Assembly (NCBI RefSeq): GCF_988243305.1 | Contig: NZ_OZ547136.1 | Length of the DNA stretch: 64,000 bases | Direction: 5' to 3' (one strand) | Shown: positions 1 to 45,604 of the stretch, in pieces | Numbering within the stretch: position 1 is the stretch's first letter | Layout: the number at the start of each line of letters is the position of its first letter | Made by a program: the position numbers and the translations under genes | Notes under the pieces: generated by a model | Database searches by the model: none | What the model saw: only the letters and a program-made list of their open reading frames with translations | What the model was told of the DNA's origin: nothing

Positions 1-234
1 GTAATCGCAGCGGCATGGAAGTATTAAGACCAAAACAGCACGAGATAAAGCGGCTGAACGTCAGATGAGCCACATGGAACGTAATTCATTAAGGGCGGCT
101 TATATCCATAAAACAGAACACCTGGAATAGCGTCGGTTGATGCTACAGTGGTGGGGGGATTTTCTGGATACAAACTCGAAAGAAAATACCAGCCCCTTTG
201 AGTATACGAAGATTAACAATCCATTAAAATATTA

Positions 235-263
235 AGCACTCCGGGCAATCTGCCCGGAGTGCT
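235..263. repeat. Perfect 13-bp inverted repeat with 3-nt loop (AGCACTCCGGGCA-atc-TGCCCGGAGTGCT); possible terminator or operator
   Basis: Palindrome read directly from sequence; A/T-rich flank on the left side; lies ~200 bp upstream of the first CDS. Confidence 0.3.
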
Positions 264-463
264 TTAGCTGGCATAACGGGCTACTGATCTCCTCTGGTTA
301 CAGATAACGACTTCAGCCCTCTGAAAGAGAAAAGCGGAAGCTCAGGAAGGTTGTGATTTGCTTTTAACCTTTTTAATTTAGAAGTATTATTTTGAGATTA
401 ATCCACTTCCCATCGTCATCCTTTTTGGTGTGCGTGAAAAGCTATTTTTAAGGTTACTGCCTC

Positions 464-2773
464 ATGGAGTTATGGATATTTATAGTAGCTATTTATTTGA
501 TTTATATTCTTTTTTTCAAAAAGAAGAAAACTAAGTCCGCGGGCTCTTATACTTCCGCTCCTGTGAAAGCACCACCTAAAGAATGGCTTGCTAACAACAA
601 AAAAAATCAGTCTGTAATGCAAAACGAGGACAGCGAAGATGACAATCTGGCTACGTTTACACTAAGTGGCGGGCGGAATGTCGAATACAGCATAACAGCC
701 ACTCAACGCCAGAATTTCTCAAAAACTACCGGTGCTTTGGCTCGTTGGATTTTTCCGGGAGAGATGATCACAATCAGTGGGATAGAGGTTACCGGCGGTC
801 ACTTCTATCTTGGGCAGCGTATGAAACCTGCCGGGCATAACTCAGGCGGTTATTATGATGGCAATAACGAGGCATCGCTAGTTGACGACACGCTTAAAAT
901 ATACCCCACACCTTACATTTACGAAGATAGTTCATTAGGGTATTGGCCCAGTTTTTCCTCACTTTCACCTGAAGCTCGTGGTGCGTACCTGAGTTGGCTT
1001 GCCAGCGACAGATGCGACACTTCCTGCCCAATTGGTTACGTTTTCATTTATCTGTATGGTCTGGAAAGAAGGGCGCTTGTTGACAGCAGGGACAACAATA
1101 TATCCGACGATGAGTTCTATTCTCTTTTCAAAGAGATCTGCCGTCTCAGATCGGTTTTCAATGAAAACCGATCTTTCCGGAATTACTCATCCCAGTTACT
1201 TGAAGCGATGTCCATTCTTCGTCTGAACGAAAATCTTGCAGCAGCTCTCAACGATGATTCGGAGTTCAGCAATAGCATGCAGTTCAGGTTAATCCTGGCA
1301 AAGACTGTTGATACAGGAGCCCCGGTTCCAGCGGATCTGGCTCTGACGTGGGTGACAAACCATGCTGAATACTCATTACGAACCCCCGCCCGCCGCTGTG
1401 CGAAAGAATTTGCTGCACTATTTAAACGGCGTTACACCCTTAAATACGGTGAAGGGATGGTAGTGAAGCCGAATAAAGCGCGTCTGCGTTTAGATTACAC
1501 GCCTGCAAGTCCCAGTTTGCGAGGTATTCGGCTTCCTGTTCCCGACTTGCCTGATCCAGGTGCATTGAAAGGCCCTGTTCAGAAGCTTATGGCCATTGCC
1601 GATATATGCACAGGTGAACTGGATGCTTACAGTCGTTACCTTGGTAGAAAAGGTACTTCAGCAAATGATACCGCTGCAATTTTGTTGCTGCCTTCAGAAA
1701 TCGTTAACGAAAGCGCAGAAAAAATATTAAGTACATTCAAACACTGGGCTGATGACGCAATCCGCAGTAAGGGTGGGATAGTTTCAGTTGCTGACTACTG
1801 GTCACATATGAATGCCACCTGTCCGGCGAAGATCAATAAAAAAGAGGCCGACTTAATGCAAGCCTTTGCACAGAAAATGGGATACTGTCTGGCTCCTGAC
1901 CCCTATCACCACCACGTAAAGGCAGATGTCGATGGTGTACTTGTTTTATTCCCTGCTGGTGAAAGAGGACGTTTCTCACCTTCTCCTGAATTTATCACAG
2001 CTGTATTGACGCTCCGATTAGGTTCGGTAGTCGCCTTGATTGACAATTCTCTCGATCAAGCCGAACAGAAAGTGCTTGAGAATGCCATCAACAACAATGC
2101 CAGCTTCAGCGATGATGAAAAGCGCTCTCTGCACGCATATTTAACGTGGCAGCTTCATACTCCGGCGAATATGACGGGAATGAAAAGCCGGATTGAATTA
2201 CTCGGTGCAGCGGAAAAATCAGCTGTGGGTAAGGTTATCGTTAGTGTCGCTTGCTCTGACGGCAGAATTACGCCTGCCGAAATCAAACAGCTTGAGAAGA
2301 TTTATACAAGCCTGGGACTGGATCCCTCATCCGTATCAAGCAATATCCATCAGCATTCCGCAACTGAAACTGCTCTCGTTTCATCTGTACCAGCTAATCA
2401 GTCGACGGCAGGATTTACGCTGGATGCCAACGTACTTGCCCGCCACGAATCTGCCACTGATGATGTTCGTAAATTACTGAACTCAATTTTCACTGAAGAA
2501 GAACCAGAACAACCAGAAAGCGCTCCAGCCTCATTAACCGGGGAAGGGGGACTTGACTCCGCTCATAGCCAACTTTATCGCAGGTTGCTGGAGAAAGAAC
2601 AATGGTCCAGAAAAGAGGCGACAGAGTTGTGTAGTAACTGGAACCTGATGCTCGGCGGTGCGCTTGAGGTGATTAACGATTGGTCCTATGCGGTGGTTGA
2701 TGCACCAGTGCTGGAAGATGCTGATGATCACATTTGGATTGACCTGGAAATAGCCAAAGAATTAGAGGGTTAG
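464..2773 (+). CDS. Membrane-anchored TerB-domain protein (TerB plus TerB-C-like C-terminus); SngA-like component of a Shango-type defense operon
   Basis: 769-aa ORF; N-terminal hydrophobic helix (LWIFIVAIYLIYILFF); TerB-like motif VACSDGRITPAEIKQLEKIYTSLGLD; 3-bp gap to next gene. Confidence 0.7.
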   Translation: MELWIFIVAIYLIYILFFKKKKTKSAGSYTSAPVKAPPKEWLANNKKNQSVMQNEDSEDDNLATFTLSGGRNVEYSITATQRQNFSKTTGALARWIFPGEMITISGIEVTGGHFYLGQRMKPAGHNSGGYYDGNNEASLVDDTLKIYPTPYIYEDSSLGYWPSFSSLSPEARGAYLSWLASDRCDTSCPIGYVFIYLYGLERRALVDSRDNNISDDEFYSLFKEICRLRSVFNENRSFRNYSSQLLEAMSILRLNENLAAALNDDSEFSNSMQFRLILAKTVDTGAPVPADLALTWVTNHAEYSLRTPARRCAKEFAALFKRRYTLKYGEGMVVKPNKARLRLDYTPASPSLRGIRLPVPDLPDPGALKGPVQKLMAIADICTGELDAYSRYLGRKGTSANDTAAILLLPSEIVNESAEKILSTFKHWADDAIRSKGGIVSVADYWSHMNATCPAKINKKEADLMQAFAQKMGYCLAPDPYHHHVKADVDGVLVLFPAGERGRFSPSPEFITAVLTLRLGSVVALIDNSLDQAEQKVLENAINNNASFSDDEKRSLHAYLTWQLHTPANMTGMKSRIELLGAAEKSAVGKVIVSVACSDGRITPAEIKQLEKIYTSLGLDPSSVSSNIHQHSATETALVSSVPANQSTAGFTLDANVLARHESATDDVRKLLNSIFTEEEPEQPESAPASLTGEGGLDSAHSQLYRRLLEKEQWSRKEATELCSNWNLMLGGALEVINDWSYAVVDAPVLEDADDHIWIDLEIAKELEG

Positions 2774-2776
2774 TGA

Positions 2777-4093
2777 ATGTCTGTAACACGTATAAGAGTG
2801 AAAGAGCGCGACGCTATCATTCAGTCACTTAAGTCGGGAGTAACGCCAAGAATAGGTATTCAGCATATCCAGGTTGGCCGCGTGAATGAGATAACCGCCC
2901 TCCATCAGGATATTGAACGGATTGCTGATGGCGGGGCAAGCTTCAGACTTATCATTGGTGAGTACGGTTCCGGGAAAACATTCTTTTTAAGTGTTGTACG
3001 GTCTATTGCGTTAGAGAAGAAGCTGGTCACGGTCAGTGCAGACCTTTCTCCCGACAGACGTATCCACTCATCGGGAGGTCAGGCTCGTAATCTCTACTCA
3101 GAGCTTATGAAAAATATGTCCACCAGAAACAAACCAGATGGCAATGCATTACTTAGCGTTGTGGAAAGGTTTGTTACTGAGGCAAGGAAGGAAGCTGATG
3201 CGAACGGCTCCCTGGTCTCATCCGTTATTCATAAACGCCTTGCTGCTTTGTCAGATATGGTGGGAGGATATGACTTTGCGAAGGTCATTGACGCATTCTG
3301 GCGCGGGCATGAGCAGGATAACGAAACCTTAAAATCCAATGCTATTCGCTGGTTGCGGGGCGAGTACACCACAAAAACTGATGCCCGTAATGATCTTGAC
3401 GTCCGAACGATTATCTCAGACGCCTCGTTCTATGATTCTTTGAAGTTGATGAGCCTTTTTGTCCGTCAGGCAGGCTATGCCGGACTTTTAGTTAGCCTCG
3501 ACGAGATGGTGAACCTCTTCAAGTTGAATAATACGCAAGCGAGAACGGCCAACTACGAACAAATTTTGCGGATCCTGAATGACTGCCTGCAAGGCTCCGC
3601 TGAAAATATTGGTTTTATCCTCGGGGGGACGCCAGAATTTCTTTTCGATCCACGTAAGGGGCTCTACAGCTATGAAGCGCTCCAGTCGCGTCTGGCAGAA
3701 AACCGATTCGCACAGAAAGCTGGCGTGATTGACTACTCGTCCCCCACGCTGCATCTTGCCAGCCTCACTCCTGAGGAACTGTATATTTTACTGAAAAACC
3801 TTCGTCATGTTTATGCTGGTGGAGATCCCGCAAATTATCTGGTGCCAGATGATGCTCTGACCGGGTTTCTGCATCACTGCAGCAAAACCATCGGAGATGC
3901 TTACTTTCGAACTCCCCGCAATACCATAAAAGGTTTTCTGGATATGCTGGCTGTGCTGGAACAAAACAGAACGATGAACTGGCAAACCCTCATTGAGGGG
4001 GTGGCGATTGAAGAAGACAAGCTCAGCGATATGGATGATGCCATTGTGGAGGAAAGTGATGACGATGATGGCCTGGCGAATTTCAGATTATGA
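2777..4093 (+). CDS. P-loop ATPase (DUF2791/BrxC-like), SngB-like
   Basis: 438-aa ORF with Walker A GEYGSGKT; stop overlaps start of the helicase gene (ATGA at 4090). Confidence 0.7.
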   Translation: MSVTRIRVKERDAIIQSLKSGVTPRIGIQHIQVGRVNEITALHQDIERIADGGASFRLIIGEYGSGKTFFLSVVRSIALEKKLVTVSADLSPDRRIHSSGGQARNLYSELMKNMSTRNKPDGNALLSVVERFVTEARKEADANGSLVSSVIHKRLAALSDMVGGYDFAKVIDAFWRGHEQDNETLKSNAIRWLRGEYTTKTDARNDLDVRTIISDASFYDSLKLMSLFVRQAGYAGLLVSLDEMVNLFKLNNTQARTANYEQILRILNDCLQGSAENIGFILGGTPEFLFDPRKGLYSYEALQSRLAENRFAQKAGVIDYSSPTLHLASLTPEELYILLKNLRHVYAGGDPANYLVPDDALTGFLHHCSKTIGDAYFRTPRNTIKGFLDMLAVLEQNRTMNWQTLIEGVAIEEDKLSDMDDAIVEESDDDDGLANFRL

Positions 4094-6288
4094 GTAGTGC
4101 CTACAATAGTCTTGATCCCCGTGTCCGTAAGTGGGTTTATAAGCAGGGCTGGTCATCCTTAAGGCCCTTGCAGGAAAGCTCTATTCCGGCAATTTTAGCC
4201 CGTGATCGTGATGTACTAATTAGTGCAGGTACAGCTGCGGGTAAAACAGAGGCTTTCTTTCTTCCTGCCTGTTCAGCGATTGCAGATCTCACTGGTGGAT
4301 TTGGCATTATCTATATCAGTCCATTGAAGGCATTAATTAACGATCAACACCGTCGTCTTGAGAGTCTTGGTGAAGCCCTGGAAATGCAAGTGACGCCCTG
4401 GCACGGGGATGTACCACAAAGCAAAAAGAAGAAAGCACGGACAACCCCTTCTGGCATCTTACTTATCACACCTGAATCACTTGAGTCTTTGCTCATAAAC
4501 TCATTGGGTTGGCTCAAACAGGCGTTTTCTTCTGTGGCATACATTGTTATTGATGAGTTCCATGCTTTTATTGGCTCAGAGCGTGGTATACAGCTGCTTT
4601 CTCTGCTTAACAGAATTGACCATGTGCTGGGACGCCAGTTGAATCCAGTTCCCCGTGTCGCGTTGAGTGCCACGCTGGGAGAGCTGGAAAAAGTACCAGA
4701 ACTATTGCGCCCGGATAAGAGATTACCTTGTGAAACGGTAACAGACAGTAATAGCAAAGCCACACTACAGGTTCAGGTTAAAGGTTATCTTGAGCGGGTG
4801 CCCGAAAAAGGAGAAGAGCTCCAGAGCTCTGCTGAACAGCTCGTCTGCGCGGATATTTTCAGGCTCTGCCGTGGCGATTCCCACCTGGTCTTTGCTAACA
4901 GTCGAAAGCGTACTGAAAGCATAGCGGCAACACTGAGCGACATGTGTGAAGCAAATGTCGTTCCTAATGAATTCTTTCCTCATCATGGTTCCCTTGCAAG
5001 GGAGTTGCGTGAGGCGCTTGAAGCCCGACTGCAGAAAGGGAATTTGCCCACAACCGCTGTTTGTACAATGACGCTGGAGCTGGGTATTGATATTGGTAAG
5101 GTGCAGTCTGTCATACAAGTGACACCTCCGCATTCTGTTTCCAGTCTGCGTCAACGCATGGGACGTTCAGGGCGGCGCGATTCCCCATCGGTGCTGAGAA
5201 TGTTAATTACTGAACCTGAACTTACCGCAACCAGCAGCATTGTGGATCATTTACGGCTGCAGTTGGTTCAGGCGATGGCAATGATCAGGTTGATGATCTC
5301 TAAGCGCTGGTTCGAGCCTGCAGATATCCGGCAGAAACATTACTCCACACTACTACACCAGATCCTGGCTATTACTGCGCAATGGGGAGGTGTTCGTGCC
5401 GATCAGCTCTGGTCACAACTTTGCCAGACAGGTCCGTTCCGGAATGTGGATATAAATGACTTCAAAAGTCTGCTTAAACATATGGGGACATGTGGCCTGC
5501 TCACTCAACTAACCAGCGGTGAAATAGTTGTCGGGGCTGAGGGGGAGAAGCTGACTAATCACTACACGTTTTATGCCGTATTCAATACACCTGAGGAGTT
5601 TCGCATTGTAACGGGAAACCGAACTCTTGGCACAGTGCCTGTAGACTCCCCACTTTTGCCGGAGCAGCACATCATCTTCGGCGGACGGCGCTGGAAAGTG
5701 ACAGAGATCGAGGTTGAAAAAAAGGTTATCTATGTTGAGACGACTAAAGGCGGTCAGCCGCCACTATTCAGTGGTACCGGGATGTCTGTTCATGATGTTG
5801 TTCGCCAGGAAATGCTCACTATCTACAGGGAAAATGATTACCGTATCGCGGTAGGCAACAAGAGAGTCGATTATGCTGATGCCGCAGCCAGAAGCCTCTT
5901 CGCGGAAGGAAGTGACAACTTCCAACGCTACAATCTACAAAATGACTGTTTTATTGCCAGTGGTCAGAACTGCTACGTGATCCCGTGGATGGGGGATAAA
6001 ATTGTCAATACAATTACGTCCCTGATTATACGTTGTGGCTTTAAAGCCAGTTCATTTGCAGGTGTGATAGAGGTAGAGGACTCAGGCGTTGCCTCTGTCC
6101 AGCGTGCACTTAAGAAAATGCTATTGTCGGGGCTACCTTCAGAGTTTGAGCTTGCTGCAGTTGTTCCCGACAAGTATCTGGATAAATATGACGAGTATTT
6201 ACCAGAGACTTTGCTTGCTAAAGGGTATGGGGCACAGGCGTATGATATAGAAGGAACGTGCATCTGGCTGCAGAAACACCTTCAGTAG
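4090..6288 (+). CDS. DEAD/DEAH-box superfamily-2 helicase with C-terminal extension (DUF1998-like), SngC-like
   Basis: 732-aa ORF; motif I GTAAGKTEAF, motif II VIDEFHAF; third gene of overlapping operon. Confidence 0.75.
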   Translation: MSSAYNSLDPRVRKWVYKQGWSSLRPLQESSIPAILARDRDVLISAGTAAGKTEAFFLPACSAIADLTGGFGIIYISPLKALINDQHRRLESLGEALEMQVTPWHGDVPQSKKKKARTTPSGILLITPESLESLLINSLGWLKQAFSSVAYIVIDEFHAFIGSERGIQLLSLLNRIDHVLGRQLNPVPRVALSATLGELEKVPELLRPDKRLPCETVTDSNSKATLQVQVKGYLERVPEKGEELQSSAEQLVCADIFRLCRGDSHLVFANSRKRTESIAATLSDMCEANVVPNEFFPHHGSLARELREALEARLQKGNLPTTAVCTMTLELGIDIGKVQSVIQVTPPHSVSSLRQRMGRSGRRDSPSVLRMLITEPELTATSSIVDHLRLQLVQAMAMIRLMISKRWFEPADIRQKHYSTLLHQILAITAQWGGVRADQLWSQLCQTGPFRNVDINDFKSLLKHMGTCGLLTQLTSGEIVVGAEGEKLTNHYTFYAVFNTPEEFRIVTGNRTLGTVPVDSPLLPEQHIIFGGRRWKVTEIEVEKKVIYVETTKGGQPPLFSGTGMSVHDVVRQEMLTIYRENDYRIAVGNKRVDYADAAARSLFAEGSDNFQRYNLQNDCFIASGQNCYVIPWMGDKIVNTITSLIIRCGFKASSFAGVIEVEDSGVASVQRALKKMLLSGLPSEFELAAVVPDKYLDKYDEYLPETLLAKGYGAQAYDIEGTCIWLQKHLQ

Positions 6289-30553: not shown

Positions 30554-30565
30554 TCCCGCCATAAC

Positions 30566-30600
30566 AAAAAGCCAGCAGTGTCTGCCTGCTGGCTTTTTGT
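30566..30600 (+). terminator. Rho-independent terminator (also the probable group II intron target)
   Basis: Hairpin GCCAGCAG-tgtctgc-CTGCTGGC followed by TTTTT, 13 bp after stop codon. Confidence 0.7.
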
Positions 30601-30603
30601 TAT

Positions 30604-32406
30604 GTGCGCCGTGACTGGCGCTGTTCTTCAACTGTGGTGGCAGAAGAACGACTAAGAGGTGAAAGTCCTCCACACACCCGGTGAGGGGAAGTGTTAGCGG
30701 AAGGCAAGGGTGTTCATCGCGAGGTGAAATCTGAAGGAAGCTGGATGCAAAATGCTGGCCTGACGAACAGGAAGCGGTTAAGTCGGCGCAGCAGGGTAAG
30801 GTGGCACAAATCACCAAAGCCCGATACTCACACGGAACGCTGTGACGTAAAGCCGACAGGCATAAGCAGGAAAGTCGCGTGAATTACCCCGGGAGATCTG
30901 TCGCCCTGCCAGTGTGCTACCGGCGCCGTGAGGCGCCGGGATGGGGCGGCAGAAGTCAGCCGACGCCGTAGTAGTGCTGCAAAACCGGCAGCATGAAGGG
31001 CCGAACATGATTAACTGTGATTAGGACATCCGAACCCGATGATGATTAATGAAGCACAAGCGCAGGCAACTGCGACCAGCGGCAGAGGAGACGGACAGTA
31101 TCCGTCAGGGCTGCATGATGGCGCTGAAATCAGCACGGCGGCGGGTGGGCAAACGAAAGCGGAAGTGCCGCTGACGATGGAAGCGGTGATAACGAGAGAA
31201 AACCTGATGCTGGCTTATCAGCGCGTGGTGGAAAACAAAGGCACGGCGGGGGTGGATAACCTCAGCGTGGCGGAGTTGAAACCGTGGCTGAAGAAGAACT
31301 GGCGCAGCGTCAGGCAGGCATTGATTGACGGAAACTACCAGCCGCGGGCAATACGCCGGATGGATATCCCGAAGCCGCATGGCGGCGTGAGAACCTCAGG
31401 CATCCCGACGGTGGTGGACAGGCTTATCCAGCAGGCGGTGCAACAGGCACAGCGTTACATACGGGGTGGCAAACGGTGGGTGGTGGATATGGATCTGGAG
31501 AAGTTCTTCGACCGTGTGGATCACAGACTCCTGATGACGCGTCTGGCCAGAACGATAAAGGACAGGCGGGTGCTGTGACTGATACGCCGCTACCTGAAAG
31601 CGGAAATGGTTAAAGACGGGCAAAGGGAGAAACGGCAGGCGGGCATGCTGCAGGGCGGCCCACTGTCGCCGTTACTGTCGAACATCCTGCTGGATGAACT
31701 GGATAAAGAACTGGAGCGTCGTGGACACAGCTTCTGCCGCTACGCAGACGACTGCAACATCTACGTAAGCAGCCGGAAAGCGGGCGACCATCTGCTGAAG
31801 AACATCAGGGCGTTCGTGGAGAACAAACTGAAGGTGAATGAGAAGAAGAGCGCGGTGGCGCGCCCGTGGGATCGGAAGTTCCTCGGGTACAGTGTGACAT
31901 GGCACAAACAGGCGAAGCTGAAGATAGCCCTGACGAGCGTGAACAGGCTGAAGGAGAAAGTCCACAGTCTGACGACGGGAAACCGGAGCAAATCAGTGAA
32001 AGCGACAATCAATGCTCTGACACCAGTGCTGTGTGGATGGATAAGCTACTTCAGGCTGACGGAAGTCAGAGGAGTGCTGGAGGAGCTGGATGGCTGGATC
32101 AAACGGAAACTGCGTTGCTTGTTGTAGCGGCAGTGGAAGAGACCGCTAACCCGGGCAAAGAACCTGCAAAGAGCAGGACTGAGTAAGGACAGGGCAATGA
32201 TCTCTGCGTACAACAACCACGGGCCATGGTGGAACTCAGGGTCAAGCCATATGAATCAGGCGATAAAGAATACATGGTTCAGGAGGCAGGGTCTGATATC
32301 ACTGCTGGAACAGTAGAGGCAGTTCCAGAGTTAACATGAACCGCCGTATGCGGAACCGCACGTACGGTGGTGTGAGAGGACGGCGGGAGTGATCCCGCCT
32401 CCTACT
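30604..32406 (+). mobile_element. Group II intron (bacterial class C-like, inserted just downstream of a terminator hairpin), degenerate
   Basis: 5' end GTGCG at 30604; domain V-like hairpin at ~32341-32372; internal RT/maturase ORF; 3' boundary approximate. Confidence 0.7.
31039..32316 (+). pseudogene. Group II intron reverse transcriptase/maturase with two in-frame stop codons and an internal deletion
   Basis: RT motifs (LEKFFDRVDH, QGGPLSPLLSNILLD, YADD); in-frame TGA at 31576-31578 and TAG at 32125-32127 with homology continuing downstream (GPWWNSGSSHMN); ~30 aa missing after LIQQAV. Confidence 0.75.
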
Positions 32407-45521: not shown

Positions 45522-45604
45522 AATGCTCTCCCCTTATACCTGAACCAGACACGGAATCTGGTTCAGGTAATTTCGGGCGACCTCACACTGCCCGTTCATT
45601 TATA

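Follow-up and report, generated by a model that had tools for sequence, protein, structure and literature searches.

The window analysed here is a stretch of 64,000 nucleotides whose first 700 positions are 100% identical to many E. coli chromosomes, that of strain 042 among them. The stretch is a pheV island of E. coli: in 042, tRNA-Phe (pheV) is followed by an intact tyrosine integrase, then on the minus strand by a phosphoethanolamine transferase and an outer-membrane protein, and then on the plus strand by an integrase pseudogene and a TerB-domain gene (sngA). The pseudogene consists of the last 61 codons of a P4-type tyrosine integrase at 50-235 on the plus strand; an in-frame TAG interrupts it at 128-130, and it ends with TAA at 233-235. 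RefSeq labels this remnant in E. coli 042 "integrase, internal stop; incomplete; missing N-terminus", and the translation of 50-235 (AAERQMSHMERNSLRAAYIHKTEHLE*RRLMLQWWGDFLDTNSKENTSPFEYTKINNPLKY*) aligns with the C-terminus of an intact integrase.

A perfect hairpin follows the remnant directly. Because the TAA stop of the dead integrase occupies 233-235, the start of the hairpin falls within that stop codon, and the left arm shares its last two bases. A repeat search delimits two 14-nt arms, AAGCACTCCGGGCA at 234-247 and TGCCCGGAGTGCTT at 251-264, that are 100% complementary and belong to neither strand in particular; between them lies the loop ATC (248-250), so that the hairpin reads AAGCACTCCGGGCA/ATC/TGCCCGGAGTGCTT. 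In the nearest relative with an intact integrase the loop is GAT, the reverse complement. An earlier reading from the sequence alone (hereafter the sequence-only reading) had described a perfect 13-bp stem at 235-263; its perfection and its 3-nt loop hold, but the stem is really 14 bp long and spans 234-264.

Nine of the 14 pairs are G-C, giving the stable, GC-rich stem-loop expected of an intrinsic terminator. In a 71-nt context the RNA folds at -33 kcal/mol on the plus strand (z = -5.8) and at -31.9 kcal/mol on the minus strand (z = -5.1), and none of 200 shuffles folds as stably. The pattern occurs once in the window and in none of 100 shuffles. The hairpin ranks as the second-longest perfect hairpin of the 64-kb window, and the longest perfect stem in 60 Markov-1 simulated windows never exceeded 12 bp. 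The palindrome is real and beyond chance. A permissive scan of 1-700 against Rfam 15 returned best scores of 20-25 bits against gathering scores of 55-79, the level of generic hairpin-only matches.

Downstream lies a Shango defence operon, given here as context only. Three plus-strand ORFs spanning 464-6288, sngA (464-2773), sngB (2777-4093) and sngC (4090-6288), match PADLOC SngA, SngB and SngC with E-values of 6e-100, 9e-187 and 4e-278, which bears out the label "Shango-like" in the sequence-only reading; its distance of about 200 bp between the hairpin and the operon is also right, the first long ORF beginning at 464. The region at 325-463 (plus strand), presumably the promoter region, moves with the Shango cassette and lies outside the hairpin element. 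Between the hairpin and the left edge of the cassette is a strandless 60-nt spacer (265-324), delimited by alignment with hairpin-less Shango loci. A sigma-70 promoter scan of 1-3000 found no convincing site between the hairpin and sngA; its lone match, at 479-508, is inside the ORF. SngA residues 1-40 (window 464-590) fall outside the PADLOC SngA profile match and carry the hydrophobic stretch LWIFIVAIYLIYILFF. The promoter-like match falls within this N-terminal part, which may either precede the true start of sngA or form an N-terminal membrane anchor.

The hairpin travels with integrase genes. A survey of 5,426 complete E. coli genomes was carried out for matches to window 226-272, with sampled matches listed; among the matches listed, those to 226-272 lie at integrase 3' ends, with a median of one place per matching genome. 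Listed matches annotated "none" span just the 31-nt palindrome, and the one that was fetched (L008) is a flipped palindrome beside an integrase gene. Where the integrase at pheV, pheU or leuX is intact, a homologous hairpin begins 0-3 nt past its stop codon. In the window the hairpin shares the TAA stop of the same-strand integrase fragment, the position just downstream of a gene that an intrinsic terminator takes, and the adjacent P4-type integrase C-terminus and a hairpin homologous to those of intact members assign the locus to the intP4-type module. Both features, with the C-terminus at 50-235, recall GI-pheV and the K-12 intB module of KpLE2; unlike these, the module here is truncated, internal to an island and 3.1 kb from a second, intact integrase.

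The association extends beyond complete E. coli genomes. Metagenomes, scanned with the last integrase codons plus CCGGGC as the anchor, yielded 120 loci with about 27 distinct integrase-associated hairpin variants, and a scan of viral contigs recovered one locus, of the K-12 intB type. Window 130-300 had no counterpart in a phage collection, which leaves sequenced P4-like phages without a direct link. Members of the hairpin family also precede unrelated cargo, including an AAA protein, a transposase remnant and IS elements. The hairpin belongs to the integrase module, whatever the cargo, and not to Shango. GI-pheV is modular, with intP4 as its only conserved gene, and the paper on its evolution makes no mention of a hairpin or palindrome after intP4 (PMC11537424).

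The arrangement in 042 accounts for the presence of a dead integrase in this position. There, the 3' end of the intact integrase and the remnant form a 199-nt direct repeat with 77% identity, its copies 3,119 bp apart, and both copies (L001 2931-3129 and 6050-6248) terminate in the hairpin core. This repeat is the signature of two islands stacked at pheV, the inner integrase having decayed. A second island with its own integrase would have settled next to tRNA-Phe (pheV), after which the inner integrase would have been reduced to 61 codons; the local architecture is explained as tandem island accretion. The sequence-only reading had suggested that the hairpin might terminate a gene off the left edge of the window. 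The terminator type of the hairpin stands, but the location of the gene does not: the left-flanking gene in the 042 annotation is the integrase pseudogene, which lies inside the window at 50-235. The palindrome was also considered as an att or dif-like site, an idea set aside because it lies on the wrong side of the integrase and a repeat of the tRNA 3' end was not found.

The same reading had raised an operator as the other option, that is, a regulatory palindrome of Shango to which a dimeric regulator would bind some 200 bp before sngA. The one observation in its favour is the perfect palindrome itself, which precedes the operon on the same DNA. In about 164 E. coli genomes a Shango cassette of 94% identity lies elsewhere in the chromosome, among Mu-transposase remnants and without the hairpin. 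In the alignment, homology of these hairpin-less loci to the window starts at about 325 (L212 3001-3569), which sets the left boundary of the mobile Shango cassette near that position. In strain OkiPb01717, tRNA-Phe and an intact integrase are followed by a chimeric hairpin (L010 2493-2547) and, after it, by a Shango upstream region identical to the one here. The chimera joins a type C left arm (the K-12 intB type) to the loop and right arm of the window, its stem is cut to 7-8 bp, and it is the product expected from deletion between the two 199-nt repeats of a 042-like ancestor. The hairpin and the Shango cassette thus do not co-occur as an operator and its operon would: since Shango cassettes exist without the hairpin or with half of it, and the hairpin is tied to integrases before unrelated cargo as well, the operator reading fails the comparative test and is extremely improbable. 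A candidate regulatory element is thereby removed from the Shango defence operon.

A further match to this region occurs in strain S1-CAM-01-A, where window 325-733 matches at 96% (L213 2501-2907) in a gene annotated "outer membrane protein". The match adjoins IS remnants and a phosphoethanolamine transferase and may represent a rearranged or truncated Shango locus.

The hairpin family falls into several types. Type A, the sequence of this window, is known in the 042-like arrangement only, and type A' has the stem of type A with the loop GAT and stands behind an intact integrase. Types B1 and B2 (AAGCAGTCCGGGC-TGATT/AATCA-GCCCGGACTGCTT) differ in loop orientation. Type C (TCCCGGGC-AAAT-GCCCGGGA) is found at K-12 intB and in O157. 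Type D (TCCCGGGCT-GCC-AGCCCGGGA) is followed by ATTATTTT, and type E contains G-U pairs and is followed by ATTATTTTTTTG. Type F (ATTCTCCCGGCA-GAAA/TTCC-TGCCGGGAGAAT) comes from Siccibacter and Enterobacter.

Variation among these types preserves pairing. Pairs were counted outward from the GGGC/GCCC anchor; a MAFFT alignment put the type with a 4-nt loop one column out of register. Hairpins of the integrases at pheV, pheU and leuX have the common core CCCGGGC/GCCCGGG and an outer stem that varies on both sides yet stays paired. Among the integrase-associated variants sampled, an 8-bp core is nearly invariant across E. coli and E. albertii genomes, an uncultured Enterobacteriaceae bacterium and metagenome contigs, and variants with a disrupted core are rare singletons; the core of type F differs slightly (CCCGGC/GCCGGG). 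Stem position 7 is T-A or C-G, and position 8 is C-G, G-C, T-A or T-G. At positions 9-12, types A and B pair other bases than type F does, and types C and D are unpaired; two lineages have different extended stems of 12-13 bp. Changes on the two sides of the stem thus leave the pairing intact. G-U wobbles on the plus strand occur in several variants (L093, L173, L176, L014). A.C mismatches, which are G-U wobbles on the minus strand, occur only in L095 and in the already damaged L135 and L145; wobbles are therefore commoner on the plus strand.

As a terminator, the copy in the window has mixed properties. On the plus strand, the short T run TTT at 263-265 would serve as a U-tail if the two outer A-U pairs open and is weak by simple criteria. 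On the minus strand, the T-rich tail AATATTTTAATGG (221-233) is the complement of the last integrase codons, P-L-K-Y. A simple terminator scan makes no plus-strand call at the hairpin and calls a minus-strand terminator-like site at 264..234 with the tail AATATTTTAA. A d'Aubenton-Carafa-type score, a rough guide since the formula is approximate, comes to +16.5 on the plus strand (stem trimmed to 236-262, tail TTTAGCTGG) and +14.6 on the minus strand. As rough a guide for the K-12 homologue, the score there is -5.2, lower despite a mapped 3' end. From its letters, this copy is a plausible candidate for a bidirectional terminator, whose A-rich 5' flank could allow the hairpin to stop leftward transcription as well.

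Relatives extend the comparison. By the simple criterion, type D and, within type C, the K-12 intB form (L006) are terminator-like on the plus strand; in type E a long run of T follows the stem. The type C copies L001b and L007 are called in neither direction, and the closest intact relative (L003) lacks the plus-strand T run. Across 76 distinct P4-like integrase loci of Enterobacterales, a plus-strand terminator-like site lies at most 120 nt past the stop codon in 20, compared with 1/76 and 3/76 in control segments inside coding sequence and 5/74 farther downstream. Minus-strand sites after integrase stops number 13/76 versus 6/76, 4/76 and 1/74 in the controls. Many of the plus-strand sites are unrelated in sequence to the hairpin, and distant integrases often have canonical terminators there.

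Transcript mapping is available for the K-12 homologue. The M63 0.4 sheet of a Term-seq study of K-12 MG1655 records a 3' end at 4497967 (plus strand), classed as "primary, intB" (Adams et al., eLife 2021, PMC7815308), and the region listed for it is ...TCATCCCGGGCAAATGCCCGGGAATTA/TTCTAGGATT (PMC7815308, Supplementary file 1). That file lists 50 nt upstream and 10 nt downstream of each end, a layout by which the intB transcript ends 27 nt beyond its stop codon and 4 nt beyond the type C hairpin. The end is weak, with about 970 reads, was recorded in M63 medium, one of three conditions (PMC7815308), and could mark where a stable hairpin halted exonuclease trimming instead of where transcription terminated; a further Term-seq resource has no intB entry. 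Three lines, namely the U-tails of relatives, the enrichment at the 76 loci and the K-12 Term-seq end, point to integrase RNA 3'-end formation. The RNA 3' end itself is mapped at the homologue, by analogy with which the copy in the window may be able to terminate transcription. The K-12 data also contain a Rho-termination region inside intB (4497091, plus strand) and an antisense 3' end (4497144, minus strand), intB corresponding to L006 1397-2605 (PMC7815308). To judge from these two sites, intB transcription in K-12 may be curtailed within the gene as well.

The hairpin might instead be mainly a minus-strand terminator that shields the integrase gene from antisense transcription arising in the cargo. 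The simple scan calls the minus strand only, with the tail AATATTTTAA here and likewise in types A' and B, and minus-strand sites are enriched after integrase stops. Yet conserved integrase codons (NPLK) account for this T-tail, which is just their complement, and no convergent transcript is evident, since the next downstream gene is on the plus strand both in the window and at those type B loci that were examined. The K-12 3' end sits on the plus strand, and a single A.C mismatch variant fits minus-strand G-U pairing against several cases of plus-strand G-U. A mainly minus-strand function is unlikely on this evidence.

The loops of the family point to an unusual mode of change. Between close relatives they are exactly reverse-complemented, as ATC/GAT (A/A'), AATCA/TGATT (B2/B1) and GCC/GGC (D/D'), and the type F loops GAAA/TTCC are nearly so; inversions occur in at least three stem backgrounds (L003; L002/L004/L005/L009; L138; L014/L016). 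The pheV and pheU islands L004 and L005 show no differences over 1,550 nt of tRNA-Phe and integrase, then a flipped 5-nt loop past the integrase, and a cargo that diverges by about 2%. Loop orientation mostly tracks the downstream haplotype group across 32 type B loci, and one near-identical pair differs by the loop flip alone. Two recombination junctions map inside the hairpin, one in the OkiPb01717 chimera (L010) and one between L004 and L005, the latter the end of a recombination or conversion tract that stops exactly at the hairpin.

Replication template switching at inverted repeats homogenises arms, extends stems and inverts spacers (PMC8794818, PMC8604942). The loop flips look like recurrent template-switch inversion, given loops that are exact reverse complements and arms that are perfectly complementary; such quasipalindrome mutation accounts for the evolution of the palindrome, not for its function, and its mechanism is read from sequence patterns. 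The flips and junctions also fit recombination tracts that stop where integrase-module homology stops. Perfect palindromes with flipped loops can arise by template switching (PMC8794818), so the double-sided changes in the stem are no proof of selection on RNA pairing.

Taken to its end, this line of reasoning makes the palindrome functionless, created and kept perfect by template switching while hitch-hiking with the integrase 3' end. The inversions in at least three stem backgrounds and the perfectly homogenised arms are what template switching leaves behind (PMC8794818, PMC8604942). Against this, the 8-bp core persists among the integrase-associated variants sampled, with disrupted cores as rare singletons, analogous hairpins are enriched after many unrelated integrase genes, and the K-12 homologue marks an RNA 3' end. 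A palindrome without function is accordingly very unlikely, if less so than a Shango operator.

A role at the DNA level could take the form of a palindrome of the integrase module bound by a protein (Int, an excisionase or AlpA-type protein, or a host protein) or of a structure-prone recombination boundary. Such a role would suit the 13-14 bp of perfect Watson-Crick pairing in types A and B, the two junctions within the hairpin and a loop orientation that mostly follows the downstream haplotype. The junctions, however, are expected at the hairpin anyway because integrase-module homology stops there. At distant integrases this place is taken by unrelated hairpins with ordinary U-tracts, a pattern that suits a role in RNA better than a specific binding site; several variants have plus-strand G-U wobbles, and an RNA 3' end has been mapped at the K-12 homologue. 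Palindromes known to be cleaved by SbcCD are far longer than the 31 bp found here. A DNA-level role is improbable overall, and there is a similarly small chance that the palindrome, beyond any terminator function, is a structure-prone boundary for cargo swapping by P4-type modules. Were this so, crossovers and conversion tracts would end inside the palindrome while its loop flips repeatedly, making it a natural "joint" of tRNA-Phe/Leu islands. As a natural illustration of template switching and recombination at a palindrome, the flips and junctions are neat, though still anecdotal.

REP/BIME palindromes resemble the hairpin in being GC-rich, intergenic and able to stabilise upstream mRNA. Unlike them, the hairpin is not dispersed: it has a single copy in the window, and the matches listed lie at integrase 3' ends only. 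A REP/BIME element or a MITE end was rejected for these reasons; the sequence is also presumably dissimilar to the REP consensus.

The palindrome is probably the 3'-end stem-loop, of the intrinsic-terminator type, of a P4-type island integrase (intP4 family), here surviving as a relic. Like Rho-independent terminators of E. coli, it is a GC-rich stem-loop at a stop codon with a T-rich 3' side and an A-rich 5' flank, it scores positive both ways, and at its K-12 homologue Term-seq maps a 3' end 4 nt beyond the stem. Unlike them, it has a plus-strand U-tract of 3 nt and an unusually long, perfect stem of 14 bp, and the gene it served is a pseudogene fragment. In intact relatives, the hairpin after the stop codon would end or stabilise the integrase transcript and insulate the cargo from integrase read-through. 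In the window, the integrase is dead, the upstream genes of 042 point leftward and the next gene to the right points rightward, so there is no obvious transcript to terminate, and with its gene dead the hairpin is probably a relic. It would be a leftover at the boundary of integrase and cargo, outside the Shango cassette, and probably does little or no work here. It is an ordinary terminator-type integrase hairpin and matters little for biology at large. Its value is for annotation: the conserved terminator-type hairpin of intP4-type integrase genes marks the junction of integrase and cargo and can serve as a landmark for island modules.

Other perfect palindromes occur in the window. One lies in the sngA coding sequence at 1148-1174, with 13-nt arms 1 nt apart (AGATCGGTTTTCA-A-TGAAAACCGATCT), and another at 45537-45569 has a 13-bp stem and a 7-nt loop. 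The longest perfect hairpin of the window, at 30560-30604, has a 19-bp stem and a 7-nt loop (CATAACAAAAAGCCAGCAG-TGTCTGC-CTGCTGGCTTTTTGTTATG); with A and T runs within its stem ends, it resembles a bidirectional terminator.
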